Below, piece after piece: positions 6,891-29,726 of a stretch of DNA of 32,000 nt (its first letter is position 1; every line of letters begins with the position of its first letter). The stretch spans positions 210,001 through 242,000 of the forward strand of contig CALSTM010000001.1 in assembly GCA_943789275.1 (NCBI GenBank), written 5' to 3'. A program made the translations under genes and the position numbers. The DNA comes from Candidatus Poseidoniaceae archaeon (GTDB lineage Archaea; Thermoplasmatota; Poseidoniia; Poseidoniales; Poseidoniaceae). The notes beneath the pieces were generated by a model. It was not told the DNA's origin and made no database searches. It worked only from the letters and a program-made list of their open reading frames with translations.

Positions 6891-9365
6891 ATGAGAAAGA
6901 CGATTGTATTTTTGATGATGACCCTGCTTTTAGCCGCCAGCCTACCGCTCAATTCGAGCGCAGGACCGTCTGATGACATCCCCACAAACGCCGCAGGAAC
7001 AGGCGTACATGACTCATTGGTCGCTGCACTCGCCCATGCGGGTCTCGTCTCAACCCTCCAAGGGCCTGGGCCCTTCACCGTGTTCGCACCGACAGACCAG
7101 GCTTTCGCTGCTGCTGGAATCGACTTAGCCGATTTTGATACGCCCGAGGAAAACGCAACCCTCTCTGATATCCTGTTGCACCACGTCTACTCTGGTGAGG
7201 TTCAATCAAGCGCTGTTACTGACGGCATGATCGCAGAAATGGTGAACGGTGACAATGTGAAATTCGGAGTGAACGGGGCTACAGTGACCGTTGGAACGGC
7301 AACAGTAACAACCGCTGATGTCATCTCTTCAAACGGAATCATTCACGTTATCGATACCGTCTTGATGCCGCCCGTCGACATCCCAGCAACCGCTCAAAGC
7401 ACCACCATTCACGACACGTTGGTCAATGCCGTCATTCAGGCCGATCTCCTCACGACTCTCCAAAGTCCAGGGCCGTTCACCGTCTTCGCACCAACAGACC
7501 AAGCGTTCATCGATGCTGGTATCAACTTGGCAGCACTCGACACGCCTGAAGGTAAAGCAACGCTTTCCGACATCCTTCTCTACCACGTTGTCCCGTCTGA
7601 GGTTCCTGCCTCTGCAGTCACCGAATGTATGGTGGCTGATGCGGCGAATGGACAGCCTCTCGCCTTCACTGTGGGAGACGGCGTTATGGTCAACGGTGCC
7701 AATGTCACCATGACCGACGTCATTACCAGTAACGGACTTATTCACGTCATTGACAAAGTTCTAACTCCAAGCGACACACCAAACGATATTCCCCGAACTG
7801 CACAATGCACTGGCCTACATGATTCGCTGGTTGCAGGAGTGATACAAGCTGAATTGCTTGAAACTCTTCAAGGTCCAGGACCGTTCACGGTCTTCGCACC
7901 GACCGACCAAGCCTTCATTGATGCCGGGATTGATTTGGCAGCACTCGATACTCCCGAAGGCAAGGCTACACTTGCCGACATTCTTCTTTACCACGTTGTA
8001 GCCGGAGAGGTACCAGCAGCGAATGTTACTGATTGTATGTCCGCAACTGCCGCAAACGGTCAGCCCTTGGCGTTCACCGTTGATGGAACTGTTATGGTGA
8101 ACGGCGCTACTGTCATCCAAGCAGATGTCGGTACAAGCAACGGATTCATTCATGTTATCGACAAAGTGCTTACCCCAACCGATACGCCCAACGACATTCC
8201 ACGAACGGCACAATGCACCGGGATTCACGATTCTCTTGTTGCTGGGGTTATCCAAGCTGAACTTCTCGTGACGCTTCAGGGAACGGGACCGTTCACGCTG
8301 TTTGCACCGACGGACCAGGCCTTTGCTGATGCCGGAATCGACCTTGCGGCTCTCGATACTGCTGAAGGCAAGGCAGCGCTCACCGACATCTTGCTCTACC
8401 ACGTAATTGCTGGTCAAATTCCATCCACTGCAGTTACGGAGTGCCTCACAGCCAACACTGTCAACGGTAATCCTGTTGCCTTTACCGTAGGTGACAGCGT
8501 CATGATCAACGATGCTACCGTCACACTTGCTGATGTGAACACCAGTAACGGTGTCATCCACGTGATTGACAAGGTCTTGACACCGACCACTACACCAAAC
8601 GATGTTCCACGCACTGCACAATGCACCGGCATACACGACTCGTTGGTTGCCGGTGTCATTCAAGCAGGCCTTCTGGAAACCCTTCAAGGCCCTGGGCCAT
8701 TCACCGTTTTTGCTCCAACAGACCAAGCATTCACGGATGCAGGAATCGATTTGGCAGCACTTGATACTGCAGAAGGACAAGCGGCACTGAGCGATATTCT
8801 ACTCTACCACGTGGTTGCCGGTGAAGTTCCAGCAGCCAACGTCACCGACTGTATGACTGCTACTGCTGTAAACGGCAACCCACTCTCGTTCACCGTCGGC
8901 ACTTCTGTCATGGTCAACGGAGCAACCGTTACCGCAACAGATGTTGCGACAAGCAACGGCATCATCCACGTCATTGACAAGGTTCTATCACCAACCGAAA
9001 CTCCGAATGATATTCCTCGTACAGCTCAATGCACGGGGATTCACAACTCACTGGTTGCCGCCGTCATTCAAGCGGACTTGCTCGAGACGCTCCAAGGTCC
9101 AGGCCCGTTCACCGTGTTTGCACCAACGGACCAAGCGTTCACCGATGCAGGCATTGATTTGGGCGCTCTGGATACGCCAGAAGGTAAGGCAGCACTTGCC
9201 GACATTCTGCTCTATCACGTTGTAGCAGGTGATGTCCCAGCAGCCAATGTCACGGAGTGTATGACTGCAGACGCTGTCAACGGTCAACCGCTTTCGTTCA
9301 CTGTCGGAGATTCCGTCATGGTGAACGGCGCCACCGTCACATCTGCCGGATGTCAGCACCAGTAA
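6891..9365 (+). CDS. Fasciclin (FAS1) repeat surface protein, N-terminal fragment: signal peptide plus FAS1 domains 1-5 and most of domain 6, ended by a frameshift
   Basis: Signal peptide MRKTIVFLMMTLLLAASLP. FAS1 hallmarks recur every 136 aa: GPFTVFAPTD(Q)AF, LLYHVV and SNG(I/V)IHVIDKVL. The reading frame ends in the middle of domain 6 (…VNGATVTSAGCQHQ*). Confidence 0.9.
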   Translation: MRKTIVFLMMTLLLAASLPLNSSAGPSDDIPTNAAGTGVHDSLVAALAHAGLVSTLQGPGPFTVFAPTDQAFAAAGIDLADFDTPEENATLSDILLHHVYSGEVQSSAVTDGMIAEMVNGDNVKFGVNGATVTVGTATVTTADVISSNGIIHVIDTVLMPPVDIPATAQSTTIHDTLVNAVIQADLLTTLQSPGPFTVFAPTDQAFIDAGINLAALDTPEGKATLSDILLYHVVPSEVPASAVTECMVADAANGQPLAFTVGDGVMVNGANVTMTDVITSNGLIHVIDKVLTPSDTPNDIPRTAQCTGLHDSLVAGVIQAELLETLQGPGPFTVFAPTDQAFIDAGIDLAALDTPEGKATLADILLYHVVAGEVPAANVTDCMSATAANGQPLAFTVDGTVMVNGATVIQADVGTSNGFIHVIDKVLTPTDTPNDIPRTAQCTGIHDSLVAGVIQAELLVTLQGTGPFTLFAPTDQAFADAGIDLAALDTAEGKAALTDILLYHVIAGQIPSTAVTECLTANTVNGNPVAFTVGDSVMINDATVTLADVNTSNGVIHVIDKVLTPTTTPNDVPRTAQCTGIHDSLVAGVIQAGLLETLQGPGPFTVFAPTDQAFTDAGIDLAALDTAEGQAALSDILLYHVVAGEVPAANVTDCMTATAVNGNPLSFTVGTSVMVNGATVTATDVATSNGIIHVIDKVLSPTETPNDIPRTAQCTGIHNSLVAAVIQADLLETLQGPGPFTVFAPTDQAFTDAGIDLGALDTPEGKAALADILLYHVVAGDVPAANVTECMTADAVNGQPLSFTVGDSVMVNGATVTSAGCQHQ

Positions 9366-10233
9366 CGGTGTGATTCATGTTATCGACAAGGTATTGTCTC
9401 CAACAGACACGCCAAACGACATCCCCCGCACTGCACAATGCACCGGTATTCACGATTCTTTGGTCGCAGCAGTGGTACAAGCAGAGTTGCTGACCACATT
9501 GCAGGGAGATGGGCCATTCACCCTTTTCGCTCCAACCGACCAAGCGTTCATCGATGCCGGCATTGATTTGGCAGCATTGGATACCGCTGATGGTAAAGCT
9601 GCTCTTACGGACATCCTGCTTTACCACGTTGTTGCTGGAGCAGTCCCTTCCTCGGCAGTTACCGAGTGCATGTCGGCAAACGCCGTCAACGGTCAACCGC
9701 TCTGGTTCACCGTCGCAGACACCGTCATGGTCAACGGTGCCACCGTAACCTTGGCAGATGTGAACACAAGCAACGGCGTCATCCACGTCATCGATAAGGT
9801 ATTGACCCCCACCGATACACCAAACGATTTGCCTCGAACTGCTCAATGCACAGGTGTGCACAACTCACTGGTCGCAGCTGTAATTCAGGCTGAACTACTG
9901 GTCACACTCCAGGGTGAAGGGCCGTTCACGCTCTTTGCTCCAACGGACCAAGCATTTGCCGATGCTGGTATCGATTTGGCAGCATTGGACACCCCTGAAG
10001 GAAAGGCTGCATTGACGGATATTCTCCTCCATCACGTCTATTCAGGCGCTGTCATGAGTGCCAACATCACCGACGGAATGGTTGTACAGATGGTCAACGG
10101 CGACAACATTACGCTGACGGTCACCACCGGAATGAGTGCTTCAGTACGCATCGGAAACGCAACGGTTACCGGTGCTGATGTGATGACCTCCAACGGTATC
10201 ATCCACGTCATTGACAAGGTATTGATGCCTCCG
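6975..10233 (+). repeat. Coding tandem repeat: eight FAS1-domain units with a 408-nt period
   Basis: Unit starts (GAC/GAT ATT/ATC = D-I/V-P) are at 6975, 7377, 7785, 8193, 8601, 9009, 9418 and 9826. The spacings are 402, 408, 408, 408, 408, 409 and 408 nt. Confidence 0.9.
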
Positions 10234-10770
10234 GCTGAAGATGCAACAGACACGACCGATACGACAGGTCAGACAGACGGTGCAAGCGGTGATTCAGACG
10301 ATGAAGGCGGATTCCTATGGATTCTTATCGTTGTGATTTTGGTCCTTGGCGGTGGCGCAGGCGGATTGTTGTTCATGCGCAGCCGAAGTGGGGATGATGA
10401 TGCTTCGAAGAACTTCGTTCAGGGCGGATTGGAAAACCAATTGCAACCGATTTCAACCACGTCATATGCAGGGACTCAAGCAGCAGCTGCAACCGCATAC
10501 GCAACTGAACCCGTGCAGCAAACTCAGCAGTATCAGCAAGTTCAACAAACTCAACAGTACCAACCTGCACAGCAAGTCGCACAAGTTGCTCCAGTGACTC
10601 AAGTTGCTCAAGTTCAGCCGGTTCAGACTGTGGAAGTCATTCCACAACCTGCTGTTGCCGAACCTACAGTTCTGCGACAATGGACCGATGAAGCAGGTTA
10701 CACCTGGAGAGCAATGGACGACGGTAACACCTACTGGTGGACCGGAACTGAGTGGCAAAAGTACTCTTGA
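9370..10770 (+). CDS. Fasciclin repeat surface protein, C-terminal fragment: end of domain 6, domains 7-8, TM anchor and Q-rich tail. It continues 6891..9365 in the +1 frame
   Basis: It starts mid-domain at (V)IHVIDKVL, exactly the segment missing from the upstream ORF, and has no signal peptide of its own. A TM helix FLWILIVVILVLGGGAGGLLFM is followed by a Q/V/A/P-rich tail. Confidence 0.85.
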   Translation: MIHVIDKVLSPTDTPNDIPRTAQCTGIHDSLVAAVVQAELLTTLQGDGPFTLFAPTDQAFIDAGIDLAALDTADGKAALTDILLYHVVAGAVPSSAVTECMSANAVNGQPLWFTVADTVMVNGATVTLADVNTSNGVIHVIDKVLTPTDTPNDLPRTAQCTGVHNSLVAAVIQAELLVTLQGEGPFTLFAPTDQAFADAGIDLAALDTPEGKAALTDILLHHVYSGAVMSANITDGMVVQMVNGDNITLTVTTGMSASVRIGNATVTGADVMTSNGIIHVIDKVLMPPAEDATDTTDTTGQTDGASGDSDDEGGFLWILIVVILVLGGGAGGLLFMRSRSGDDDASKNFVQGGLENQLQPISTTSYAGTQAAAATAYATEPVQQTQQYQQVQQTQQYQPAQQVAQVAPVTQVAQVQPVQTVEVIPQPAVAEPTVLRQWTDEAGYTWRAMDDGNTYWWTGTEWQKYS

Positions 10771-18660: not shown

Positions 18661-19512
18661 ATGGACCCGAAAGCACCACGCCTTGCGACAGCATCGCTCG
18701 TGTTGGGTTTAATCGCAGCTGTATGTGCCATTGTCAGTTCTGTTCTGAAACTCGGCTTTGTCGATGGATTTGGTACCGAAGAAATGGCTATGGTCATTGT
18801 CTCAACGGTTCTTTTCATCGTCTCGTTCTTGGCATCAAGAGAGCGTGAGCAAATGGAAATGATATCTGCGCCGACACTGGAAGAGCAATTTTCTGCGATC
18901 GAATCAATGCCAACACAATTCCGCTCTTCTTCTACGAATGTTGATTCAATTGAATTTGAAACAAAACCGGCTGAAGCCTCGCAACCGCAAGCCATGGCCA
19001 CCTCTCTTCTTGGAGACTTCAAGGATGTACAACCGGAAAATGTTACCGATGCCTTTGCAACGTTGTCAACCGGGATGGGTTCTGTCGGAACACAACACGT
19101 CGAGATGAATCCAGCACCCCACCGTCACACACAGCAAGGCCGTGAAGTGTTCAAATCCTCTCGCTCGACCGAAGACACCTTCGACCGACTGGAAGTTCAG
19201 AACATCCCGCTCCCCGGGCAAGTGAATACCAAGCCAACTCCTGAACTCCCATGGCAAACGTCGAATCGTGAGTTCCAAACTGAAGGTTCTACACAGGTCT
19301 CTCTACCAACACAAATAACGCAACCGGTGCCTCAAACCGAAGTACAGGTGGAACCCATCGCTGAATCACAGATGCGCATTGACCACTTACCGAGCATGCC
19401 GAACCTCGATGAGTTGTTTGAAGCACCTCCAGCCCAAACCGTCTCACATCTTCCAGAACAACCCAGCACCCCCTCTCTTCCGGACTTACCAAACCTCGAC
19501 GACTTGTTTTAG
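18661..19512 (+). CDS. Hypothetical membrane-anchored protein with a long disordered P/Q/E/T-rich region and a duplicated C-terminal PNLD(D/E)LF motif
   Basis: Starting at ATG 18661 avoids overlap with folD. It has two N-terminal TM helices followed by low-complexity sequence. No family recognised. Confidence 0.5.
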   Translation: MDPKAPRLATASLVLGLIAAVCAIVSSVLKLGFVDGFGTEEMAMVIVSTVLFIVSFLASREREQMEMISAPTLEEQFSAIESMPTQFRSSSTNVDSIEFETKPAEASQPQAMATSLLGDFKDVQPENVTDAFATLSTGMGSVGTQHVEMNPAPHRHTQQGREVFKSSRSTEDTFDRLEVQNIPLPGQVNTKPTPELPWQTSNREFQTEGSTQVSLPTQITQPVPQTEVQVEPIAESQMRIDHLPSMPNLDELFEAPPAQTVSHLPEQPSTPSLPDLPNLDDLF

Positions 19513-19555
19513 CACGCTGCATAGTTCAATAGAGGTTGAGCGGTTGGGTTGTAAC

Positions 19556-20455
19556 ATGTGGACCGAAGCGTTTGATCTTCACAGTCATTCCACCAACAGC
19601 GATGGTGAACATCCAGTCGCGGACGTGGCGAAGATGATGGCTGAGTCCAAGGTCCAATTTTGGTCATTAACCGACCACGATACCATTTCGGGGTGGAGTT
19701 CAGGAAAGCAGGCTGCAGAATCTGAAGGGATGAAGTTCATTCCTGGCGTTGAGATTACCTGTATGCCCGGTCTTGAAGCAAATGCTGCAGTCATGGAAAC
19801 AAGACAACGAGACCGTGCTTCCGATTCGTGGCATCTCTTGGCGTATTTCCCGCACATTGAATTTTCCAGTAAGGGTCACATGGATTTCGAAGCATGGTTA
19901 GCACCGTTGGGTCAAGGTCGAATTCCACGTATGAAGACGATGGTACAACGGCTCGAAGAACTTGGAATGCCCATTGATTTTGACGCCGTTGTAGCGCGTG
20001 CAGGGGATTCAGTCGGCCGACCGCACTTGGCAGATGAAATGATCGCAGCCGGTTATGTTGAGACAAGACAACAGGCGTTTGACGAATGGATTGGAGACGG
20101 TAAGCCCGTTCACATCACTCGGCCTAAACCGAGCATTGCTGAGGCCTGCAAGGCCGTGCATGAGGCAGGAGGTTTCACATCCCTGGCTCATCCACTTTAC
20201 TATTGCATTGACACTGCAGACCTTGTCCAATTCTGCCTTGATGCGGGTGTTGATGCCATCGAATGTTTCCACCGGAGTCATTCCGATGCTTATCGACATG
20301 AACTTTGGTCAGCCGCCAAGAAGGCCGAACTTGGGGTGACATGTGGCTCAGATTTCCACGGACGTATGTACAATCAATCCCCTGGACGTATGGCAGTGCC
20401 GTTATCGACACTCCCTCCTTCCCTCAATCGGATGGCAAAACTTCTTTTCGAGTGA
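19556..20455 (+). CDS. PHP-domain metal-dependent phosphoesterase (TrpH/YciV-like)
   Basis: FDLHSHSTNSDGEH, SLTDHDT, GVEITC, SLAHP and CGSDFHG motifs. ATG 19556 (MWTEAFDLHSHS) was chosen because the longer track ORF overlaps the upstream gene. Confidence 0.85.
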   Translation: MWTEAFDLHSHSTNSDGEHPVADVAKMMAESKVQFWSLTDHDTISGWSSGKQAAESEGMKFIPGVEITCMPGLEANAAVMETRQRDRASDSWHLLAYFPHIEFSSKGHMDFEAWLAPLGQGRIPRMKTMVQRLEELGMPIDFDAVVARAGDSVGRPHLADEMIAAGYVETRQQAFDEWIGDGKPVHITRPKPSIAEACKAVHEAGGFTSLAHPLYYCIDTADLVQFCLDAGVDAIECFHRSHSDAYRHELWSAAKKAELGVTCGSDFHGRMYNQSPGRMAVPLSTLPPSLNRMAKLLFE

Positions 20456-21269
20456 TTGCATCAATCACTATGGCGATTTCGAAAAGAATGACCACAGGCA
20501 TGGCTACGAGGAACAGCGAAAGCGGGTCTGGTGGAGACAAAAAAGCTCCGAGAATAAACGCACTAAACCAAATGTGGCGCCGATAGGAGCGAACGGTTGC
20601 TCGACGAACCAATCCGAGTCGCAATACAGCGAGTGTGACGAGGGGGGCTTGAAATCCGACTGCAGAAGCGAGTGCCAAATTCGCAATGAATCCAATGTAA
20701 CTGGTGAGTCTCCACTCAGTTGAAAGGCCCGCACTTTGCGCATCGGTCGTGAGGTATTCAAGCAACATCGGTGTAAGCCAATTCCACGAATAGTAGATTC
20801 CGGCAACCATCAAAGTGAGGGCCGATACAAACGTCATGAGCATCGTCATGTTCGGACGAGGTGTTTTGAAATCAAGTTCTGCAAGGCGTTGACGAACGGC
20901 AAAATGTTTGCTTGCTTTCCAACTTCCCTCTGAAAGGAACACGACAACCATGCACATGAGTCCCACATGGGCAGCCAATCTTACTTGAAGCAAAATGAAC
21001 TCGACCGGTGTGATCACAATAATCTCGACGTCGCTTGGAAGCCGCTGTGGCTCAATCAGCCATGCGATAAAAGTTCGAGTGAGTGGAAACGTTGCGACAA
21101 AGCCAATTGCGAACACGAGGGCGAGCATTTTCACTCTTGAGCGAAGATGGGTGCGGAATTGTGAGAGCATTTCGCCGCCGGGTGAATCAAGCAGTTCATC
21201 CACTGCACTGACCAATCGTTCGGCTCCTGCCATTGTTGTGAGGACGAGGCAGACCCTCATAACACACAC
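20424..21269 (-). CDS. tatC: Sec-independent (Tat) protein translocase subunit TatC
   Basis: THLRSRVKMLALVF (HL.ELR.R-like N-terminus), six TM segments, and FLSPPDPLSLFLVAMPVVILFE, the signature TatC C-terminal motif. Confidence 0.85.
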   Translation of the reverse strand: MCVMRVCLVLTTMAGAERLVSAVDELLDSPGGEMLSQFRTHLRSRVKMLALVFAIGFVATFPLTRTFIAWLIEPQRLPSDVEIIVITPVEFILLQVRLAAHVGLMCMVVVFLSEGSWKASKHFAVRQRLAELDFKTPRPNMTMLMTFVSALTLMVAGIYYSWNWLTPMLLEYLTTDAQSAGLSTEWRLTSYIGFIANLALASAVGFQAPLVTLAVLRLGLVRRATVRSYRRHIWFSAFILGAFLSPPDPLSLFLVAMPVVILFEIAIVIDAITRKEVLPSD

Positions 21270-21281
21270 TCATCGTGAATG

Positions 21282-22715
21282 TCATTCTTGTTCCCAGAGA
21301 TGAGACGGTGTTGAGTCGTAGAACTTCCTGTTGTATTTCTTGAGCCGACGGATGCGATTGATGACAAAGCCAGTCATCCACAGGGATGCAAGTGAAAGAG
21401 CGATGGCTTGACCCATCAAGTCCTGATGATAATCGTTTAACACGCGAACTTGAATGACATCACCCGTTGAGTTCTGACTCGGGTTATGCATCATGATGTA
21501 ATGGAAGACCATTGGGGAATCGATGACCACTCCAAGTGTCGACTGTGGAGGTACATACTGAACCTCTCCAATACTCTTCACGATGCTCCAATCAATCGAG
21601 CCGTTTTCCATCGCAGGAGGTGCGATGTCGACCATGAGAACAACCACCTCCATGGTGATGGAATCATCGAGATTCGTTATGTTGGAATGAACATTCATCC
21701 CAGGTTCGAACTTCTGTATAATCTCAAACCGTGAGTCATCAGGTCCAAGTTGGTAGGATATGCGTTCATCGACGTGCGTTTCTTGGTACTGAACGGCCAT
21801 GAGAATCGTGGTGAGTAACAGCAATGCGACGATTCCCTCTACCAGCAAATGCTGACGAATCTTTTTGCTCGTGAATCCTTTGAAGAAACTACCGTAATCA
21901 TTTCGCAACCTCGGTTGGAGGTGGTGGATGAACAATGCTCCAACACCGCCAATTAACATTCCAAGTGGTATGTCGATGAACCAATGGATGCCAAGATAAA
22001 GAATGGTGAATATGAACAACACTGTATTCAGCAATACGAACATGTGGTATCGGAAATGCCGCCACTCCCGAAGTGTTCCTCCGTTTTCTCGCACATGCAG
22101 ATAATTAAGCAGCAGAATACCGAACGGTATGGCGACATGCAGAGATGGAACAGCATTGTCGAGTGGGTCATGCGTTGCATAGAATACGCTGTACCATCCC
22201 TCGTGATACAGCAGCGATTCCATTCCTGGTATCCAGGAGGATGTGACTTCCACATTAAAAAACAGGTAATAAGGAACGGCCAGAGCGTAAATCAGCAGAT
22301 AATTCAGGGCCACTTTGTCCGTCATGTCTCGGTCGCCAGTGTAGGCGAAGTACACGGTTGTGACGTAAATCAAGAACAGGTAAATGAACAGGTAATGGAA
22401 ATTAAGGAATGAAGTGAGCGTGTCGTTGAGGAAGAACTCTTGAACATGCTGTGTAAAGTCCCCTTCGAGCGAATAGACGGCTTGTGTCCAATGTCCAGTT
22501 CGCAATTTAATCGGTTCGTTGAGCGCATCGGTAATCGACTTCCACTTGATGATGACAATGTAACCCATTGCGTGAAGGTAGTACCGTTGGTCGTGAAAAA
22601 CCTGCAACCAACGCTTCATTGGGACACGCATTGCAGGCTTGTGGGCAGTGAATGCCCAACAAATAATTGGCGTCAACACCAAGATGAGCCCCATCATGAT
22701 GCCATAGGGGTCCAT
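21282..22715 (-). CDS. PAP2-superfamily (PAP2_3/IPC-synthase-like) integral membrane protein with a C-terminal extracytoplasmic domain of about 190 aa
   Basis: Multi-TM N-terminal half carrying the PAP2 C2 motif VPSLHVA and the C3 motif HWFID (HxxxD). No C1 KxxxxxxRP was seen, as in head-group transferase-type PAP2 proteins. Confidence 0.55.
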   Translation of the reverse strand: MDPYGIMMGLILVLTPIICWAFTAHKPAMRVPMKRWLQVFHDQRYYLHAMGYIVIIKWKSITDALNEPIKLRTGHWTQAVYSLEGDFTQHVQEFFLNDTLTSFLNFHYLFIYLFLIYVTTVYFAYTGDRDMTDKVALNYLLIYALAVPYYLFFNVEVTSSWIPGMESLLYHEGWYSVFYATHDPLDNAVPSLHVAIPFGILLLNYLHVRENGGTLREWRHFRYHMFVLLNTVLFIFTILYLGIHWFIDIPLGMLIGGVGALFIHHLQPRLRNDYGSFFKGFTSKKIRQHLLVEGIVALLLLTTILMAVQYQETHVDERISYQLGPDDSRFEIIQKFEPGMNVHSNITNLDDSITMEVVVLMVDIAPPAMENGSIDWSIVKSIGEVQYVPPQSTLGVVIDSPMVFHYIMMHNPSQNSTGDVIQVRVLNDYHQDLMGQAIALSLASLWMTGFVINRIRRLKKYNRKFYDSTPSHLWEQE

Positions 22716-22843
22716 GTTTTGACGGGCGTAGGGATTTCATATAGGTATTATGACGAACATGACCGGTAAAGCGGCTTCCGTTTACTCACGAAGATGGGGC
22801 ACAGCATCATTACGCTTAGAAAGGAGTTCTCATTGGATGTAAC

Positions 22844-24001
22844 ATGGTGCAAAAATGGAACCAAGCACCTGAGAACACTTTGGAGAGTCTTCGGCACGCC
22901 ATTCAATTCAACGACGGCATCGAATTTGACTTACGATTGACCAGTGATCAAGAACTGATTTTGCATCATGACGCACACCTTTCAGTACCGGAGTCCAAAT
23001 ACCCGCATTCGGTGAAGTGGACTGAAAACCACACGCTTGAAGAGTTAACATCGTTGGGCTTTCTCTCGTTCAAAGCTATGCTTGAAGACCCCGTGATACA
23101 CTCAGAGTGGCGCGACAAGGGTAAAATGGGTTGTGTGGAATTCAAACGTCCACACCCTCGTGCTCTCTACGGCGGTGGATTTTTTGGGAAAAAGCAACAT
23201 ATCTCTCATATGAGTCATATGATCTCGAAAGCCGAAGTCTTGCTCGATGAATACGAGATTCCCCATGAAAACGCCGTCTACTATGCATTCCATACTGGAA
23301 TGGAATCTTCAGCCAAGATGGCTCAAACAAAACGTCCTTGGGCGAATTTAACTCCATACATCCCCCCATTCGGAACCTATTACACCAAAAGAATGCGTGG
23401 TACTTTACAGTTCTTGGGCACTCCATTGGCTCGATTGATTCACGCCAATAAAGACGCAGGCGCTGCAATGGCTCCCTGTGCTGTCGAGTATTTCTTACCT
23501 CCACAGAATTGGCTCACGTTCGGTCGGACAGGCGGCTTAAAAGGCGACCGAATACGGCGTGTGAATGCACATCAGGGTGGATATCCGATTTACGTCTGGC
23601 CTGCAAACCTCGACACTGAATACGATATTCTCAATGCCGGTTTGACGGGGCTTACAGATTGTTCAGACCCTGATGTTACTTGGTTGCCTTCGGGGCACTT
23701 GAGATGGACTCAACCGGCGACCAAACCTCTTGATGCTCAGCAAACTGAACTCCTCCATTCTGCAACTGCTTCAAATCATCTTGACATTTTGAAAGAACTT
23801 CAAACCCATGTACTCCCATGGTCTGATTGCGATGCTCAGCGTAAAACCGAGCTCATCGATATGTGGAAAGAAAAATGGCAGTGGAGCGATTCAACCGCAG
23901 CCATCCTCGAGCGTTCAAGTGATGCATCGCCCCCATGGGAAGCGATACGGCTGCTCGGCCATCGAGGCTCAGGGAAGACTTCACGCCCAGTTTTGAAGTG
24001 A
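22844..24001 (+). CDS. Glycerophosphodiester phosphodiesterase (GDPD) family protein, apparently circularly permuted
   Basis: PENTLESLRHAIQFNDGIEFDLRLTSDQELILHHD (ENT, E-x-D, HD motifs), CVEFK, and YVWPANLDTEYDILNAGLTGLTDCSDPD (the WTVN...GVDGIITD-like end of the barrel). The N-terminal HRG strand is missing, and LLGHRGSG appears at the extreme C-terminus. Confidence 0.8.
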   Translation: MVQKWNQAPENTLESLRHAIQFNDGIEFDLRLTSDQELILHHDAHLSVPESKYPHSVKWTENHTLEELTSLGFLSFKAMLEDPVIHSEWRDKGKMGCVEFKRPHPRALYGGGFFGKKQHISHMSHMISKAEVLLDEYEIPHENAVYYAFHTGMESSAKMAQTKRPWANLTPYIPPFGTYYTKRMRGTLQFLGTPLARLIHANKDAGAAMAPCAVEYFLPPQNWLTFGRTGGLKGDRIRRVNAHQGGYPIYVWPANLDTEYDILNAGLTGLTDCSDPDVTWLPSGHLRWTQPATKPLDAQQTELLHSATASNHLDILKELQTHVLPWSDCDAQRKTELIDMWKEKWQWSDSTAAILERSSDASPPWEAIRLLGHRGSGKTSRPVLK

Positions 24002-24004
24002 GTC

Positions 24005-25189
24005 TCACTCGATATGTCGAAGCGTTTGTGCTTCAGCGATGTACTTGGGTCGATAAATTGGCGTACCCTTTCCGTTCCGCAAAACAGCACGCTCATCGAC
24101 GATTTGTGCACCAATTCCTGCTACACGAGCCCATCCAAAGAAGGTGGTGTAATAGGTTGGGTCGGTGAATCCAATGTGGTGCAATAAAGCGCCACTTGCG
24201 ATGTCGACGTTGGCGTTTGGGTTGCTGATCTTTGGATTCTCAGCAAGGACACGAGGAGCAACTTCTCGCAGCGTTGTAACAATTTTGAAGTTTTCATCGT
24301 CAGGGCAAATTTCAGAGCCAAGTTCGAATTGAGCAGTAGCGCGAGGGTCCTCAGCCCGAAGGACTGCGTGGCCAAAGCCAAAGATTGGTCGCTTTGCTTC
24401 GAGTTCAGCTCTCACGAATGCTTCAACCTCAGTCGGGTCGCTGGTTCCTACCTTCAGCACAAATTCAAGGCAGGATTGATTTGCTCGTCCGTGAAGAGGC
24501 CCTGAAAGTGCATTCATTGCACCGGCCATCGAAGAGTAAACGGTTGCCTTGCCTGATGCGATTGCCTTACCTGAAAAGGTCGAGAGGTTGCCGCCACCAT
24601 GGTCCATATGAAGAACGAGATAGGTAGAAATTACACGCTTCATTTTCGCTTTGTCGACCCCTTCAAAATCGAGCGCATGAACAAATCGGTCAACGAGGTT
24701 CATCGATGTGTCATCAGCGGGAATATCGTTTTCTCGACCTTCACGGATTCTGAAAATGAGTCCCATCAAACGAGGCATCCGTGCAACGAGATTCAGTGCA
24801 TCTTCCTTCCAATCCTCGGTAGTTTCCAACATGCCCAAGGTGTGTATGCCAATGCTGAGCCAGTCCATTGGATGGCCGAATTTTGGTAAAGTTTTGAGTA
24901 CAGATTCCAAATCTCCAGGGATCGCAGCACGGTTCGCAAGGTCTTGACGGAAAGCAGAGGACTGTTCATCGGTCGGAAGTTCCTTGTGGAACAAGAGGTA
25001 AACGATATCCTCAGGGTCAAATTGGGCCAATTCGGAAATCGGATAGCCGCAGTAATGAACGCCTTCAGTTGGCGTGACATATGAGGTGCGGCAAGTGCCA
25101 ACTGGAACGCCTCTTAGGCCAGTGTTGAGGTGGTTCTCAGTCACTTCCAAGAGTACCTTCTTGTCTGCCAAATGCTCCCCTCGGAACAT
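24005..25189 (-). CDS. gltA: Citrate synthase (or 2-methylcitrate synthase) family
   Basis: LSGPLHGRANQ, GFGHAVLRAEDPRA and DIASGALLHHIGF are conserved catalytic His/Asp regions of the citrate synthase family. Confidence 0.93.
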   Translation of the reverse strand: MFRGEHLADKKVLLEVTENHLNTGLRGVPVGTCRTSYVTPTEGVHYCGYPISELAQFDPEDIVYLLFHKELPTDEQSSAFRQDLANRAAIPGDLESVLKTLPKFGHPMDWLSIGIHTLGMLETTEDWKEDALNLVARMPRLMGLIFRIREGRENDIPADDTSMNLVDRFVHALDFEGVDKAKMKRVISTYLVLHMDHGGGNLSTFSGKAIASGKATVYSSMAGAMNALSGPLHGRANQSCLEFVLKVGTSDPTEVEAFVRAELEAKRPIFGFGHAVLRAEDPRATAQFELGSEICPDDENFKIVTTLREVAPRVLAENPKISNPNANVDIASGALLHHIGFTDPTYYTTFFGWARVAGIGAQIVDERAVLRNGKGTPIYRPKYIAEAQTLRHIE

Positions 25190-25264
25190 TCCACATACCT
25201 CTTTCGTATAAAGGCGGCTCCTCCATATTCAACTGTAAACAATCGGTAGAGTGCCTTCTGGACC

Positions 25265-25732
25265 CTATTTTCTGTTCCAAGGTGGCCAAGAACGGAAACC
25301 CTTTGTCGATTCTCTGTCGGCAAAGACGTGGATGCGGATTGACTCTCCATCAATCACAAGCGCATCATCAGCAGTAAGCCCGGGGCATGTTTCTTTGACT
25401 TCTTTCCAAGCTCGGTCTGTAGCGAGATTTTCGCCCCACCATGGGAACGCTGCACATTGTTGCGGGCGAACGGTATAGATGGTGCATTGCTTGTTGCCAT
25501 CCAAATAGATGCATACATCATCCACCGGGCGACTTTTGAGCACATATCGGCCGTCTAAGGTTTGCCGACAGTCTCTTTCCAACCAATCCTCCACTTCCAT
25601 TTTGTGATGCTTAGAAATTCGTTCAGCATCTGTTATGGACAGGTAAACAATTCCACCTGGCTCATCACAGCATTTGCCACAATTCGCTTGACATGAGAAG
25701 GCTACGCCTTCCATCCACCATGGAGGTCTCAT
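25265..25732 (-). CDS. YkgJ-family zinc/iron-chelating CxxCxxCC-domain protein
   Basis: CQANCGKCCDEPGG, then CIYLDGNKQCTIYTVRPQQCAAFPWW, matching the UPF0153/YkgJ pattern. Its ATG overlaps the upstream stop (ATGA). Confidence 0.7.
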   Translation of the reverse strand: MRPPWWMEGVAFSCQANCGKCCDEPGGIVYLSITDAERISKHHKMEVEDWLERDCRQTLDGRYVLKSRPVDDVCIYLDGNKQCTIYTVRPQQCAAFPWWGENLATDRAWKEVKETCPGLTADDALVIDGESIRIHVFADRESTKGFRSWPPWNRK

Positions 25733-27762
25733 TCTTCTTCACCCATCAGCATGTTTTGAACGGGGTGTAATCGGCCAAGACGAATTTTACGTGGCTCAGC
25801 GGTATGGTCAAGTAAATCCATCATGTCAACGCTGCCGGAGTCTACGTTCCATTCTCCAGCAGGCTCATGGCTGTCGAGAGGATCTACGGTTTTCTTTGAT
25901 GAGCGTCGACCGACTTTTCGCCTTTCTTTTTCAACAGTATCTTCTTCCATTTCTGGCCAAGGCTCGCGGTCGGGATCAAATTCAGTAAGATTACTTTCCA
26001 TTCTCCGTAATTCATCTGCGATGGATATCAATTCCTCGATGGTTGCTTCGGAAGTACGCTCGGAGAGGTCGTGAAGTTTTGATTCAAGATGACCAAGTTG
26101 TTTTGAACTCTCAATTAAATCCCTTTCAAAGGAATTGATTTTGCTATCGAATGCCTCATCCAAATCGGTCAACACATCAGCCGCCAGTCCGATATCACGG
26201 TCTTCAATTCGACCTTTGCGAGCAACAAGATGTTGCTCTCTCTCATGCATATTCAATACCGATGGTGCAGCAGGCGCTGTATCCTCCAATGCAATTTTGA
26301 GATATTCAGCGTGGCGTCTGTCACCTGATGCGGCGAGATCACGGGCGTCAAGTTCTGGTGGGATGTACTCGTCGACTCCGATTTCAGGTAACTCAGAATA
26401 GAGGTCTATACCTCCATGAACTTCGTCACTGTATACTGTGTCAACAGCAGAATTGATGAGTCGCATAGCGATGTCCTCTACTTTTTCTCGCTCCGCTAGA
26501 GGTTGCACCGATTGAAGGTCAAGTTGATTTGAAAGCAGGGCAGTGACGTCTTCTCCATCCAGTACCTCCTCACCGGATTGAAGAGCGAGAGCGACCAAGT
26601 CGAAATTGGCTTTTGTCGATTGCCATCCAATGGTATCTTTCAAGACCAGGCTTGCCAATTGACTGTCGTTCATCATGAGGCCTTTCTTGTGCGAAAGATG
26701 TCGTGCATAGAGAACCATGCTTGTCGATTGTGGAGGCTCAAGTTGCACCGAGGCTGCATGACGGGTGAGTTCCCACAGACGCGAGGTAGGCCAATCATCG
26801 GGAGTGCTCTTCGAAGTGAGCAGTACGTGAACGCCAAGATTGAGTGCATAGTCAACCATCATGCCAAGTTCGTGGGCGAGTTCGGGATGGTTCACGTGTG
26901 CGTCAATATCGTCAATTGCAAGCAATCTTGCGTTCACCAACGTATCTTGCCAGCCTTCTGGCAAGCGTTCCAATCCTGCGAACTCCGCACCTGTAAGCAG
27001 GTAGACATTCCCTTCTTGACGGCGCAGTACTGCTTGAGCAGTCGCATGAAGCAGGTGCGTTCTTCCTGTTTGTGATGCGCCGATGAAGAGGAGTGGGTTG
27101 AGTTGACCTCCAGGTGAATCAACCACCGCCTCAGCAGCCTGAGTTGCGCGTGTATTTTCTGGAATGCTAAACCACTGTTTGAAACTCTTCCGAACCTCGG
27201 GACGTAAACGTGATGGCCATACACCTTCAGTTGGGAGTATGACGCTGTGGTGGAACGGTGAAGTTTCATCGTCAGGTGCCAAATCGTTTGCAAGAATTTG
27301 GGTCGTAAGGCCACGATGGCCATCAAGAACCGACTTCCATACCGGGCTGCCATCGTGTTCCATCCCCAAGTAACCGTCTTCGACAGGCCCTTCCTGCTGT
27401 TCGATGGAATCGAATGTTCGTTGGCGTAACGACCGAATGCGACGTGCCGCTATGTCCGAGAGTGAATCTCCGTTGGATTGAAATTCGATGGCAGGCTTTC
27501 TTCGTTCAGTTTGCTTGCCCAAAACGCCGTTAGCTACCAATTGAAACGTCGGTCGCTCAACACTTTCAGTTCGTTGCAGCAGTGTGCCTTTACGTCGGTC
27601 CACGACATCATTCTTGCCGAGCAATCGATTCAGTTTCGAGTTCGAGGGTTCAGAACGCTGTCGATTCTGAGGTGCGATTCGTTCGATTCCTGAGCCAGTT
27701 TGGTCCAGTTTTTGTCGAGCAAGCTCAAGGGCAAGAGCGAGTTTCTCACGCCGTGGATTCAT
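25729..27762 (-). CDS. DnaA/Hda-family AAA+ ATPase-like protein with long disordered and coiled-coil flanks; no DnaA DNA-binding domain
   Basis: Residues about 195-400 (AVVDSPGGQLNPLLFIGASQTGRTHLLHA ... ARLLAIDDID ... VHVLLTSKSTPDDW ... SRLWELTRHAASVQLEPP) align motif by motif with bacterial DnaA domain III (NPLFiYGgvGlGKTHLLHA, LLlIDDIQ, iiLTSDrpP, SRf.wGl.v.iepP). The N-terminus is basic and disordered; the C-terminus is an acidic coiled coil. Confidence 0.7.
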   Translation of the reverse strand: MNPRREKLALALELARQKLDQTGSGIERIAPQNRQRSEPSNSKLNRLLGKNDVVDRRKGTLLQRTESVERPTFQLVANGVLGKQTERRKPAIEFQSNGDSLSDIAARRIRSLRQRTFDSIEQQEGPVEDGYLGMEHDGSPVWKSVLDGHRGLTTQILANDLAPDDETSPFHHSVILPTEGVWPSRLRPEVRKSFKQWFSIPENTRATQAAEAVVDSPGGQLNPLLFIGASQTGRTHLLHATAQAVLRRQEGNVYLLTGAEFAGLERLPEGWQDTLVNARLLAIDDIDAHVNHPELAHELGMMVDYALNLGVHVLLTSKSTPDDWPTSRLWELTRHAASVQLEPPQSTSMVLYARHLSHKKGLMMNDSQLASLVLKDTIGWQSTKANFDLVALALQSGEEVLDGEDVTALLSNQLDLQSVQPLAEREKVEDIAMRLINSAVDTVYSDEVHGGIDLYSELPEIGVDEYIPPELDARDLAASGDRRHAEYLKIALEDTAPAAPSVLNMHEREQHLVARKGRIEDRDIGLAADVLTDLDEAFDSKINSFERDLIESSKQLGHLESKLHDLSERTSEATIEELISIADELRRMESNLTEFDPDREPWPEMEEDTVEKERRKVGRRSSKKTVDPLDSHEPAGEWNVDSGSVDMMDLLDHTAEPRKIRLGRLHPVQNMLMGEEE

Positions 27763-29726
27763 TCGCCTTTCGCCTCCATTTCCTTGCGAAGCCGTTCCCT
27801 GTCTTCAAGTTCCCACACGCTGAGTTTATCTTCCAGTGAAGGTTTCGACTGCTGGCGAAAGGCACCTTCGCGACTTGGTTTTTCGTGTTGGTTTTGCTCT
27901 CTTGCACCGGGTCGGGCCATATGCGGGGTGAGTGATGTTTCGGTGTTGACCGGCTTCCTACTTTTCACCGCATCAAGTGGTCGATTCGGCAGGGGTGTCT
28001 TTGGAAGCCTATGTTCGCGGGTGTTGACATGTTGGCGAGTGGCATCCAGTACTGATGAATGTAATTTTGGAACAGCAGCCATTTTTTCAACCGCTCTCTC
28101 TTGTCGCTGCGTGTAGTTCTCAAGAGTCGAAGAGAACGCTTGCGGTGGTTGAATACTGCCTGCGTCCACTTCACTGAGTTCTTTTGCTTCAGGCGCATTT
28201 CTTACTGCTGCAAACAAAGCGCGCTGCTTTTTTTGGTTTGGTCGTGGCAAAGCCCTCTTTTTCTTCCTTCGAATCTTTTGCGCCTTTCGAGGGCCAGTTG
28301 ACTGCACGCCAGGCATGCGCTCTGCATGCGCACTCGCTGTATGTGAATGCTCAAATTGAGCGCTCGGAACAACTGGTTTAGCAACCTCTGGAAGGGTTCT
28401 TGGAATTGGAGCGTCAGTGGGCTGAGGTCTCTGTTCGATGGCCACCGGTTGTTGGTGGTTTGCAACTGGCTCAGCATTCTTGTTCGTCGGTTCCGGTTCT
28501 TCTTCATTGCTCCATTCTTGAACAACGGAATGCAGTGATTCTGTGGCGGCTTGAACTTCTTCTGACTCGGGAGCGTCGAATCCACCTTCCATCGTCCCAA
28601 AAACACTGGATTGCGGTGCGATAGGGCCGCCGTTCGATGACCAAATCGCTTGTTGCAGTTGTTGTTCAATCCATTCCCGTTCTTCTTCACTGGCTGGGGC
28701 GCATAATGGATGGTCAAGAAGAAGGTCGGGTTCAAGGTTCCAGTGCTCCAATACCGATGCCTCAAGGTCGGTCATGTAGCGTGAGAGGTGCTGGCGTGTG
28801 GTCATTGAAAAGGCGTTGAAGTCAGCTGTCGTCAAGAACAGATGGTCTTCCAAGCGAACTCCATCAACGATGTCTCGCAGGAAATTTACAATCCTGTCAT
28901 CACCGTGTATACTTGAGAGGTACTCGATTCCTTCAAGGACAACCACTGCGCGAAGGTTCTCCCACAGGAACGAGTCGATTTTACGTCGGATGTTTTCGAG
29001 GCTCGGTTCCGTAGATTTGGTGCTGCTGTTCTGCGAGAGCCAACTGCTTGACGCAATTGGAATGTTGTGTTCGACATTGAGTGATTCTATGTCGTGTCGG
29101 GCTAGAACCAGCAACGGGCGCCCGTGAACTGCCAATTGTCCCGCCAGGTCGAACAATGGTGATGGGTCTGGTGAGTCAAACAAGTACGCATCACCCGGCC
29201 GAAGCATTTTTTCCAATCCATCGAAACGCTGCATCATTGCACGGCTTCGTTGACGCAAAGCCTCGGGTGCTTCAACAACCGTTTCCATTTCCGGGAGGCG
29301 TTCTTCACGGCGCCAACTGCTTGTTCGATACCTTGCTTTTGACCACCACGGGTGCTCGTTATTTTCTGAACTCTGCTTTTGCTCGGTTTGCAACTGCGCT
29401 TCAGGGTACAGATCGAGAATCCGGTCCACATCAGACAGCGGCAACTCATGGACGGCAAGAAGTGAATCGAGGAGTGCACAATCGCTTTCGATGTCGAGTA
29501 AGGCTTCGAGAGCCATACTGATCGAGGTGGCTTCATGCACCGCCATCATGGGGATTCCCTCTTTGAAAGCAATGTGGCCTATGCGAGGCATTTGTTCCTT
29601 TGGCCGACGTTCAATACGCAGGTATCCCGTCGTCGATAATCTGGCGATGTCGGAGGAAAGAAGTTGCAATGAATCCGGTCCCCCTCGGCGGACTTCCGTA
29701 ACATCTCCTTGCGGCAATTCCACCAT
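27759..29726 (-). CDS. DUF835-like domain protein with an N-terminal GYLRIE...GxIxFxxG module and a basic, P/Q-rich disordered tail of about 300 aa
   Basis: Residues about 175-330 (GDAYLFDS...GRPLLVLARHDIESL...SWLSQ...ENLRAVVVLEGIEYLSSIHGDDRIVNFLRDIVD...HLFLTTADFNAFS) match the archaeal DUF835 pattern as I remember it (G..gLcitR, WLt, vvlLDglEYLi..ngf..vl.Fl..l.D). No Walker A motif is present. Confidence 0.6.
   Translation of the reverse strand: MVELPQGDVTEVRRGGPDSLQLLSSDIARLSTTGYLRIERRPKEQMPRIGHIAFKEGIPMMAVHEATSISMALEALLDIESDCALLDSLLAVHELPLSDVDRILDLYPEAQLQTEQKQSSENNEHPWWSKARYRTSSWRREERLPEMETVVEAPEALRQRSRAMMQRFDGLEKMLRPGDAYLFDSPDPSPLFDLAGQLAVHGRPLLVLARHDIESLNVEHNIPIASSSWLSQNSSTKSTEPSLENIRRKIDSFLWENLRAVVVLEGIEYLSSIHGDDRIVNFLRDIVDGVRLEDHLFLTTADFNAFSMTTRQHLSRYMTDLEASVLEHWNLEPDLLLDHPLCAPASEEEREWIEQQLQQAIWSSNGGPIAPQSSVFGTMEGGFDAPESEEVQAATESLHSVVQEWSNEEEPEPTNKNAEPVANHQQPVAIEQRPQPTDAPIPRTLPEVAKPVVPSAQFEHSHTASAHAERMPGVQSTGPRKAQKIRRKKKRALPRPNQKKQRALFAAVRNAPEAKELSEVDAGSIQPPQAFSSTLENYTQRQERAVEKMAAVPKLHSSVLDATRQHVNTREHRLPKTPLPNRPLDAVKSRKPVNTETSLTPHMARPGAREQNQHEKPSREGAFRQQSKPSLEDKLSVWELEDRERLRKEMEAKGE

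Follow-up and report, generated by a model that had tools for sequence, protein, structure and literature searches.

A DnaA/Hda-clade AAA+ module with a Walker A arginine in a protein family of Poseidoniales, encoded next to a DUF835 gene

Introduction

What is a DnaA-type AAA+ module doing on the chromosome of an archaeon, and what can it still do when the lysine of its Walker A motif is an arginine? In bacteria, AAA+ proteins of the DnaA family are textbook replication factors, while archaea initiate replication with Orc1/Cdc6. The question is raised by a 32,000-nucleotide stretch of a Candidatus Poseidoniaceae archaeon (contig CALSTM010000001.1, positions 210,001 to 242,000; hereafter the window), a member of the Poseidoniales, which are among the most abundant planktonic archaea. 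Its minus strand carries a gene for a 677-residue protein, here called the DnaA-like protein, in which an initial annotation made from the sequence had recognised a DnaA-like AAA+ module at 26563-27180. The analysis reported here places this module in the DnaA/Hda clade. We consider it probable, though well short of certain, that it is a DnaA-derived, non-motor nucleotide-binding switch or scaffold that works with an inactivated-KaiC (iKaiC, DUF835) partner, and not an origin-binding initiator. The gene and the module are located as follows.

25729..27762, minus strand: DnaA-like gene, complete, 677 aa (intact open reading frame, homologues, and the ratio of nonsynonymous to synonymous substitution rates, dN/dS)
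26533..27207, minus strand: AAA+ module, base aa 186-345 plus lid aa 346-410 (PF00308, PDB profile search, Foldseek)

An order-wide family with a DnaA/Hda-clade module

A search of 5.8 billion proteins returned 88 full-length or partial homologues of the DnaA-like protein, about 550-790 aa long and nearly all from marine metagenomes; an exhaustive profile search also recovered distant members at 26-30% identity, one of them on a 1.86-Mb contig. When one genome per GTDB species was scanned, an orthologue was found in 76 species-level loci, one per locus. These are labelled Poseidoniales, Poseidoniaceae, MG-II (Marine Group II) or 'Methanobacteriota/euryarchaeote' metagenome-assembled genomes (MAGs), and they include the original MG-II genome CM001443.1. 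Database names for the protein are 'chromosomal replication initiation ATPase DnaA', 'DnaA/Hda family protein' and 'hypothetical', and literature searches found no publication on the family in MGII/Poseidoniales. The gene is under constraint, with an overall dN/dS of 0.03-0.1.

The reading of the minus strand around the P-loop, GGQLNPLLFIGASQTGRTHLLHATAQ, is as initially annotated, and the accompanying strings LLAIDDID (Walker B), LLTSKS, SRL and LEPP are all present; the annotated span, 26563-27180, corresponds to aa 195-400, that is, to the AAA+ base plus lid. Profile searches bear out the assignment. The Pfam model Bac_DnaA (PF00308) matches the window protein over aa 193-322 with 40.2 bits (E 5.3e-10), above its gathering cut-off of 23 bits, and it also matches each of the 63 members of the family that were scanned. 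With the NCBIfam models for DnaA and Hda the protein scores alike, at about 1e-12 each, and both scores lie far under the equivalog cut-offs (TIGR00362 for DnaA, 47.6 bits against 343.9; TIGR03420 for Hda, 46.7 bits against 194.8). Against the PDB, the family profile ranked DnaA first (B. subtilis DnaA, 2e-17), followed by DnaC (2e-4), IstB (0.08) and Hda (0.1). Pairwise BLASTP gave an E-value of 1e-13 and 28% identity over 189 aa for E. coli DnaA, and 0.019 over 24 aa for E. coli Hda.

The predicted structure agrees. An AlphaFold2 (AF2) model built on 63 homologues is confident at aa 180-410, with predicted local distance difference test (pLDDT) values of 80-90. In a Foldseek search of the PDB, ranks 1-16 were occupied by DnaA or Hda only, with RuvB, RFC and proteasome chains after them. 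The template modelling (TM) score of the module was 0.82 to DnaA domain III (8bv3), compared with 0.74 and 0.78 to Hda (3bos and 5x06).

Other initiator-clade ATPases have the general AAA+ fold in common with the module and otherwise match it weakly or not at all. Orc1/Cdc6 gave no match in the Pfam, NCBIfam or PDB profile searches, and no Cdc6/ORC family was found in the 63 members. IstB matched eight of them, weakly, and reached only 13.6 bits (E 0.041) on the window protein, against a cut-off of 200. None of the 63 members has a Bac_DnaA_C match, and the AF2 model shows a coiled coil and a disordered tail in the C-terminal half of the protein, not a helix-turn-helix domain; the claims that DnaA domain IV is missing and that a role as origin-binding initiator is unlikely are therefore borne out. 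Since the Pfam, NCBIfam, AF2 and Foldseek results coincide, the similarity to DnaA is not due to chance, and the module belongs to the DnaA/Hda clade.

One locus of the scan, L063 (NZFX01000059.1), holds the full block of DUF835, DnaA-like, CxxCxxCC and citrate synthase genes described below and is filed as a 'Phycisphaerae bacterium' MAG; the contig is probably a mis-binned one from Poseidoniales.

The Walker A arginine

27058..27081, minus strand: Walker A / P-loop, G228-A-S-Q-T-G-R234-T235, with the Arg codon AGA at 27063..27061

The arginine codon AGA at 27061-27063, one base from the lysine codon AAA, was confirmed on the minus strand. Position 234 was tallied in the window and the 76 loci (77 sequences, one locus being truncated): arginine occurs in 50, lysine in 24 and cysteine in two. 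The initial annotation had asked whether orthologues share the arginine and had taken lysine at this codon as counting against its proposal. Most orthologues do share it, but the 24 sequences with lysine include one that is 73% identical to the window protein.

Arginine is encoded by CGC (21 cases), CGT (12), AGA (5), AGG (4), CGA (4) and CGG (1), six codons spread over 48 scanned loci. The closest relatives use AGA, AGG and CGA; the wider clade adds CGC, CGT and CGG. This variety indicates that the arginine is old and maintained, not a base-calling error. An artefact of another kind, namely a decaying pseudogene or the replication initiator of a mobile element, could be suspected alongside a sequencing or assembly error, given that AGA is a single base from AAA and that archaeal viruses and plasmids are known to carry DnaA-like ATPases. 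Yet beyond the six codons, the reading frame is intact, dN/dS is about 0.03, the chromosomal synteny is fixed across the order, and no relatives occur in viral contigs, PHROGs or PADLOC, so that the chance of an artefact is practically negligible.

In a neighbour-joining (NJ) tree, the basal clades carry the canonical G(E/D)SG(C/T)GKS and the arginine is carried by one large MGIIa clade. Within that clade there is one return to lysine (L004/P0006, codon AAG, the 73% identical sequence) and one switch to cysteine (L007, TGT). The deeper branches contain a second independent arginine (P0087/P0088, GPEGVGRSH) and more lysine forms; cysteine stands at the Lys/Arg position in L007, L052 and P0081-83. 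The second P-loop glycine decays in steps, from GESGTGRS through GPSETGRS to the GASQTGRT of the window. Position 234 is thus labile (K/R/C) and not an error. The polymorphism among species supplies natural variants with which the role of the Walker A residue in a non-catalytic AAA+ protein could be addressed.

A separate pattern was seen in L048-L051, which keep the Walker A lysine (GDSQTGKSH) and yet form the sole MGIIa clade without the box VII arginine (ASSLW versus ASRLW). This may represent a compensatory or alternative route of degeneration.

Other active-site residues and selection

26908..26913, minus strand: Walker B acidic pair D284-D285 in LLAIDDID (invariant in two alignments; 76 loci bar one masked residue)
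26809..26817, minus strand: sensor-1 region T316-S317-K318 (Lys in place of the aspartate of DnaA 'TSD')
26761..26784, minus strand: box VII-like helix S327-R328-L-W-E-L332-T-R334 (ungapped hidden Markov model and MAFFT alignments to DnaA)
26620..26622, minus strand: Q381 at the sensor-2 position (alignments to DnaA)

Catalysis in DnaA depends on a set of residues comprising the Walker A GKT, the sensor-1 aspartate (TSD), the box VII arginine finger (E. coli R285) and the sensor-2 arginine (R334). At these positions the window protein has R234, K318, L332 and Q381, respectively, and so lacks the set. The sensor-1 aspartate is present in all 11 bona fide DnaA proteins of the motif table (nine of the TSDR/SSDR type and two SDC variants), while in the archaeal members this position is K, N, M, T, V, L, S or R. 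The initial annotation had called the SRL motif box VII-like; the conserved arginine is indeed present, but R328 aligns with the first arginine of DnaA DRLRSRF, equivalent to E. coli R281, and the finger position is a leucine. A hydrophobic residue occupies that position in most members, the exceptions being a few deep-branching archaeal ones. The AF2 model, which places a helix at 328-334 and a strand at 337-341, agrees with the ungapped box VII alignment, and R328 and a basic residue at 334 (R/K) are conserved in the family. At sensor-2, DnaA and most family members have arginine (GWR), with Q, H or N only in the subclade of the window. The losses are distributed in layers: the family lacks the finger and the sensor-1 aspartate, a large clade has also replaced the Walker A lysine by arginine, and the subclade of the window has in addition lost the sensor-2 arginine and the second P-loop glycine.

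Other parts of the site are kept. G228, G233, S/T235 and D284-D285 are invariant or nearly so across more than 70 species; N222, P223, G233, H236, L237, D284 and D285 are invariant in the family alignments, and nowhere is the protein more conserved than in the AAA+ base. Among relatives at dS 0.66-2.6, dN/dS is 0.02-0.04 in the AAA+ module and 0.08-0.12 in the N-terminal region. As read from alignments and substitution rates, the catalytic apparatus has been dismantled, and the residues predicted to hold Mg-nucleotide are under very strong purifying selection. Strong constraint with the catalytic residues gone is the pattern expected of a module that binds nucleotide and does not hydrolyse it.

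Two alternatives hinge on these residues. Nucleotide binding may have been lost altogether, leaving a structural pseudo-AAA+ domain whose fold is kept as an interaction platform. That K, R and C are all tolerated at position 234, that the finger, the sensor-1 aspartate and, in the window, the sensor-2 arginine are absent, and that the second P-loop glycine has gone from the window's clade would fit such a loss. Non-binding pseudo-NTPases, however, usually lose the residues that are near-invariant here (G228, G233, S/T235 and the Walker B DD, at a dN/dS of about 0.03 over more than 70 species), the P-loop-free DUF835 domain being an example; we regard this alternative as plausible but unlikely. 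In the opposite direction, the module might be a working slow ATPase or timer in which arginine takes over from lysine and another basic residue, such as R/K334, acts as a finger in trans within an oligomer. The canonical GxxGxGKS of the basal clades, the invariant Walker B DD, the conserved R328 and basic residue 334 and the lineage that reverted to lysine (L004/P0006, AAG) are compatible with this idea. It has to contend with the joint absence of the canonical finger, the sensor-1 aspartate and, in the window, the sensor-2 arginine, and with the occurrence of cysteine variants; moreover, Walker A K-to-R substitutions generally abolish or strongly reduce hydrolysis. Its chance of being correct appears small.

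Comparison with DnaA and Hda

DnaA domain III is the best match of the module in both sequence and fold. The two have in common the lead-in F-x-x-[FW] ... PG..(Y)NPL, the motif G..G[KR][ST]HLLHA, an hhhhDD Walker B, the R281-equivalent arginine, EPP and the lid domain. The DnaA-like protein differs from DnaA in lacking domains I, II and IV, in its archaeal host, in its large unrelated N- and C-terminal regions and in a beta2-beta3 segment about 8 residues shorter. Without domain IV, with changed catalytic residues and with a profile score below the cut-off, it is not a member of DnaA proper.

The resemblance to Hda, which the initial annotation had described as one of spirit, is literal at the motif level, although by profile the family lies far nearer to DnaA. 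The P-loops of E. coli Hda (b2496), REGAGRSHLLHA, and Shewanella Hda (3bos/3sc3), GPVKSGRTHLIHA, carry the same arginine, and GRTHLLHA in the window corresponds to GRSHLLHA in E. coli and GRTHLIHA in Shewanella Hda. The arginine is thus real but less unusual than first implied, being native in both Hda proteins: Walker A K-to-R is a known trait in the DnaA/Hda clade and is unsurprising alone. Also shared are the absence of a DNA-binding domain, a similar fold and a shortened beta2-beta3 insertion. Crystal structures of Hda contain ADP or CDP; as a regulator Hda holds ADP and does not hydrolyse nucleotide, and its box VII arginine finger, R153 in E. coli, is required to trigger hydrolysis of DnaA-ATP (PMC5397184). 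In architecture the two proteins part ways: Hda is a single domain (about 230-250 aa) that carries the clamp-binding motif QL[SD]LF at its N terminus and the finger R153, whereas the DnaA-like protein has 677 aa, and inspection of its sequence by eye revealed no QL[SD]LF clamp-binding or PIP-box motif. The host, an archaeon, is not known to have a beta clamp. On account of size, clamp-binding motif, arginine finger and profile score, membership in Hda fails as well. As basal members have lysine and the family is much nearer DnaA than Hda, the arginine arose independently of Hda.

The comparison bears on a further possibility, that the protein is an archaeal analogue of Hda/DnaA-type regulators which acts on Orc1/Cdc6, PCNA or the origin in the replication cycle. 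Descent from the DnaA clade, the Hda-like GR[ST] P-loop, the missing domain IV and the short beta2-beta3 insertion all accord with it. Arrayed on the other side are the absence of a clamp-binding or PIP-like motif, of a DNA-binding domain and of the arginine finger that is essential for Hda action, a profile far from Hda (E 0.1), and a gene that is not beside replication genes; in addition, the bacterial two-module DnaA/Hda-family proteins examined, described below, sit in MglA/MglB/PATAN/Che signalling clusters. A replicative role of this type is highly improbable.

Operon and chromosomal context

27759..29726, minus strand: gene of the upstream partner, 655 aa (4-nt overlap of its stop codon with the start of the DnaA-like gene)
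28737-29204, minus strand: DUF835 / inactivated-KaiC RecA-like domain of the partner, aa ~175-330 (Pfam DUF835, E 2.9e-11)
29397-29726, minus strand: N-terminal domain of the DUF835 protein, aa 1-110 (conserved, confidently folded)
25265..25732, minus strand: downstream gene for a CxxCxxCC (PF03692) putative Zn/Fe-binding protein, 155 aa (Pfam E 1e-11)

The partner protein consists of an N-terminal domain (aa 1-110), a disordered linker, the DUF835 domain and a long low-complexity, basic and Pro-rich tail. According to AF2 and Foldseek, the DUF835 domain has a fold that resembles FlaH, RecA and KaiC and has no P-loop. DUF835 has been described as inactivated KaiC, an output domain of archaeal signal transduction (PMC5847659), and the partner gene thus shares with the iKaiC/DUF835 signalling modules of archaea both that domain and the RecA/KaiC/FlaH-like fold. 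Literature searches found no published link between DUF835 and a DnaA-type AAA+ protein.

The start of the CxxCxxCC gene overlaps the stop of the DnaA-like gene by 4 nt. The order DUF835, DnaA-like, CxxCxxCC and citrate synthase, with ends that abut or overlap, is kept in nearly all of the 76 loci that reach that far; L058 is the sole locus without a CxxCxxCC match, and the DUF835 gene lies directly upstream in every locus that extends to it. Distant members at 26-30% identity show the same gene order. A DnaA-derived module is fixed as a core chromosomal gene across a whole globally abundant archaeal order. The novelty lies in this setting, an uncharacterised family that spans the archaeal order, has an architecture of its own and is accompanied by iKaiC. 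The initial annotation had noted neither the archaeal host nor the conserved operon with a KaiC-like protein that is inactivated. Otherwise the window has the content of an ordinary archaeal chromosome, with genes for TFB, PheRS alpha, a DEAD-box helicase, adenylosuccinate synthetase (purA), FolD, TatC and citrate synthase and with two tRNAs; searches of viral contigs, PHROGs and PADLOC returned no relatives that would point to a mobile-element or defence origin. Replication genes do not adjoin the DnaA-like gene.

The N-terminal domain of the partner has the consensus MVELPQGDV.E.RRGG...GYIRIER...G.i.F..G.P..A.HE...G.EALL.IE.D. It matches no known family in Pfam, apart from weak DUF2226 matches in two of ten orthologues, and a profile search of 5.8 billion proteins recovered family fragments only. 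Two candidate identities found no statistical support: a likeness to PATAN/DUF4388, suggested by eye, gave only 19 aligned columns and P 0.04 when compared by hhalign with four PATAN sequences, and hhalign comparison with Roadblock gave nothing.

Proposed function

The reading that we favour combines several steps. DnaA domain III would have been acquired from bacteria and then re-purposed. The module would bind nucleotide without motor or efficient hydrolase function, and it may act as a nucleotide-state-dependent switch or scaffold by analogy with ADP-bound Hda, which has the same GR[ST] P-loop. The operon structure suggests a complex with the upstream DUF835 protein, possibly also with the downstream CxxCxxCC metal-binding protein; the surfaces for these interactions could lie in the family-specific N-terminal region, in the coiled coil and in the charged tail that ends in GEEE. 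The initial annotation had proposed a nucleotide-gated switch or scaffold and not a motor; a non-motor binding role is still the best reading, with a putative function as switch or scaffold.

Several points weigh against this reading. The case for nucleotide binding consists of residue conservation and the precedent of Hda, and the cysteine variants (L007, L052, P0081-83) argue that the protein can do without a positive charge at this position and perhaps without binding nucleotide tightly. Roughly one species in three retains the canonical GxxGxGK[ST] and could still hydrolyse ATP slowly. A gapped BLASTP alignment equates SRL with the SRF arginine finger, although this placement of box VII appears less likely than the ungapped one. 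Finally, what suggests a partnership with the DUF835 protein is synteny and the overlap of the reading frames.

If the favoured reading is true, the family would be a clear natural case of an initiator ATPase turned nucleotide-binding adaptor, with a K-to-R change convergent with that of Hda, and it would open a way to the function of two uncharacterised genes that are highly conserved in the uncultured Marine Group II archaea. A bolder version holds that the captured DnaA domain is a nucleotide-sensing pseudo-ATPase which, paired with iKaiC in a regulatory complex of two pseudo-NTPases, controls a core process of the cell, for example replication licensing, the cell cycle or cell organisation, as an independently built counterpart of Hda with a convergent K-to-R substitution. 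We offer it as speculation, with a slim prospect of being right in full.

Regions flanking the AAA+ module

27208..27762, minus strand: N-terminal region, aa 1-185 (family-specific motifs SKLNRLLGK, LLQR..RPTF, DGxPVW and WP)
25978..26202, minus strand: coiled-coil-like long helical segment, aa 521-595 (AF2 helices 521-572 and 575-595, pLDDT 76-89)
25732..25743, minus strand: conserved C-terminal tetrapeptide GEEE (G674, E675 and E676 invariant or nearly so)

The DnaA-like protein begins with a family-specific N-terminal region, continues with the AAA+ module and a linker, and closes with a coiled coil and a charged tail. The N-terminal region (aa 1-185) matches nothing in Pfam, NCBIfam or the PDB and is modelled with low confidence (pLDDT 45-75); 25 of its 185 columns are at least 90% conserved. 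Conserved residues of the coiled-coil segment include L556, E560, A573, L578, D583 and E589. Ahead of the terminal GEEE lie a basic cluster (KERRKVGRRSSKK) and an acidic tail, the latter disordered in the AF2 model. Basic clusters occur within the low-complexity tails of both neighbouring proteins, KERRKVGRRSSKK in the DnaA-like protein (~25860-25900, minus strand) and KIRRKKKRALPRPNQKKQR in the DUF835 partner (~27900-28300, minus strand). The GEEE end and the basic clusters may serve as short linear motifs that contact partners, nucleic acid or membrane.

Bacterial proteins with two DnaA-type modules

Among the matches of the exhaustive profile search are many bacterial proteins, about 650 aa long, in which two DnaA-type AAA+ modules stand in tandem (e.g., HKV76304.1, Gemmatimonadales). 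Like the archaeal family, these are long multidomain proteins that have DnaA-type modules without domain IV and are not initiators; they differ in having two canonical GKT modules, in lying in clusters without DUF835 and in forming a separate clade in the NJ tree. Their apparent rank as nearest outside relatives was rejected as an artefact of summing two modules, single-module true DnaA being better per domain. The archaeal family forms a separate long-branched clade with no specific sister group in the NJ tree.

The two-module genes adjoin genes for an MglA-like small GTPase, MglB/Roadblock and/or PATAN-TPR proteins in six of six contexts (including L079:40-3057, L081:1640-6962, L082:912-4501, L083:107-2672 and L084:1674-12085), and in L084 the cluster is followed by cheR-cheD-cheB-cheW. 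The two-module proteins look like an undescribed component of MglA/PATAN signalling clusters. Their location in MglA/MglB/PATAN/Che clusters implies that the DnaA-type fold is used outside replication too, and evidently signalling systems unrelated to replication have taken up DnaA-type modules that lack domain IV. A PATAN-like N-terminal domain of the DUF835 partner was considered as a link between the bacterial clusters and the archaeal operon; hhalign, Pfam and the profile search gave it no support.

Other observations in the window

Positions 19379-29726 of the window form a long syntenic block shared with L080, L085, L086 and L087, which are very distant Poseidoniales. The block comprises genes for PHP, TatC, PAP2, GDPD (glycerophosphodiester phosphodiesterase), citrate synthase, CxxCxxCC, DnaA-like and DUF835 proteins, a degree of conservation that is unusual for archaeal gene order. 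A 385-aa protein encoded at 22844-24001 (plus strand) matches glycerophosphodiester phosphodiesterase over its first ~85 residues only. Elsewhere on the plus strand, two adjacent genes encode FAS1 repeat proteins, at 6891-9365 (824 aa, six repeats) and 9370-10770 (466 aa, two repeats), which are probably secreted or surface adhesion proteins.

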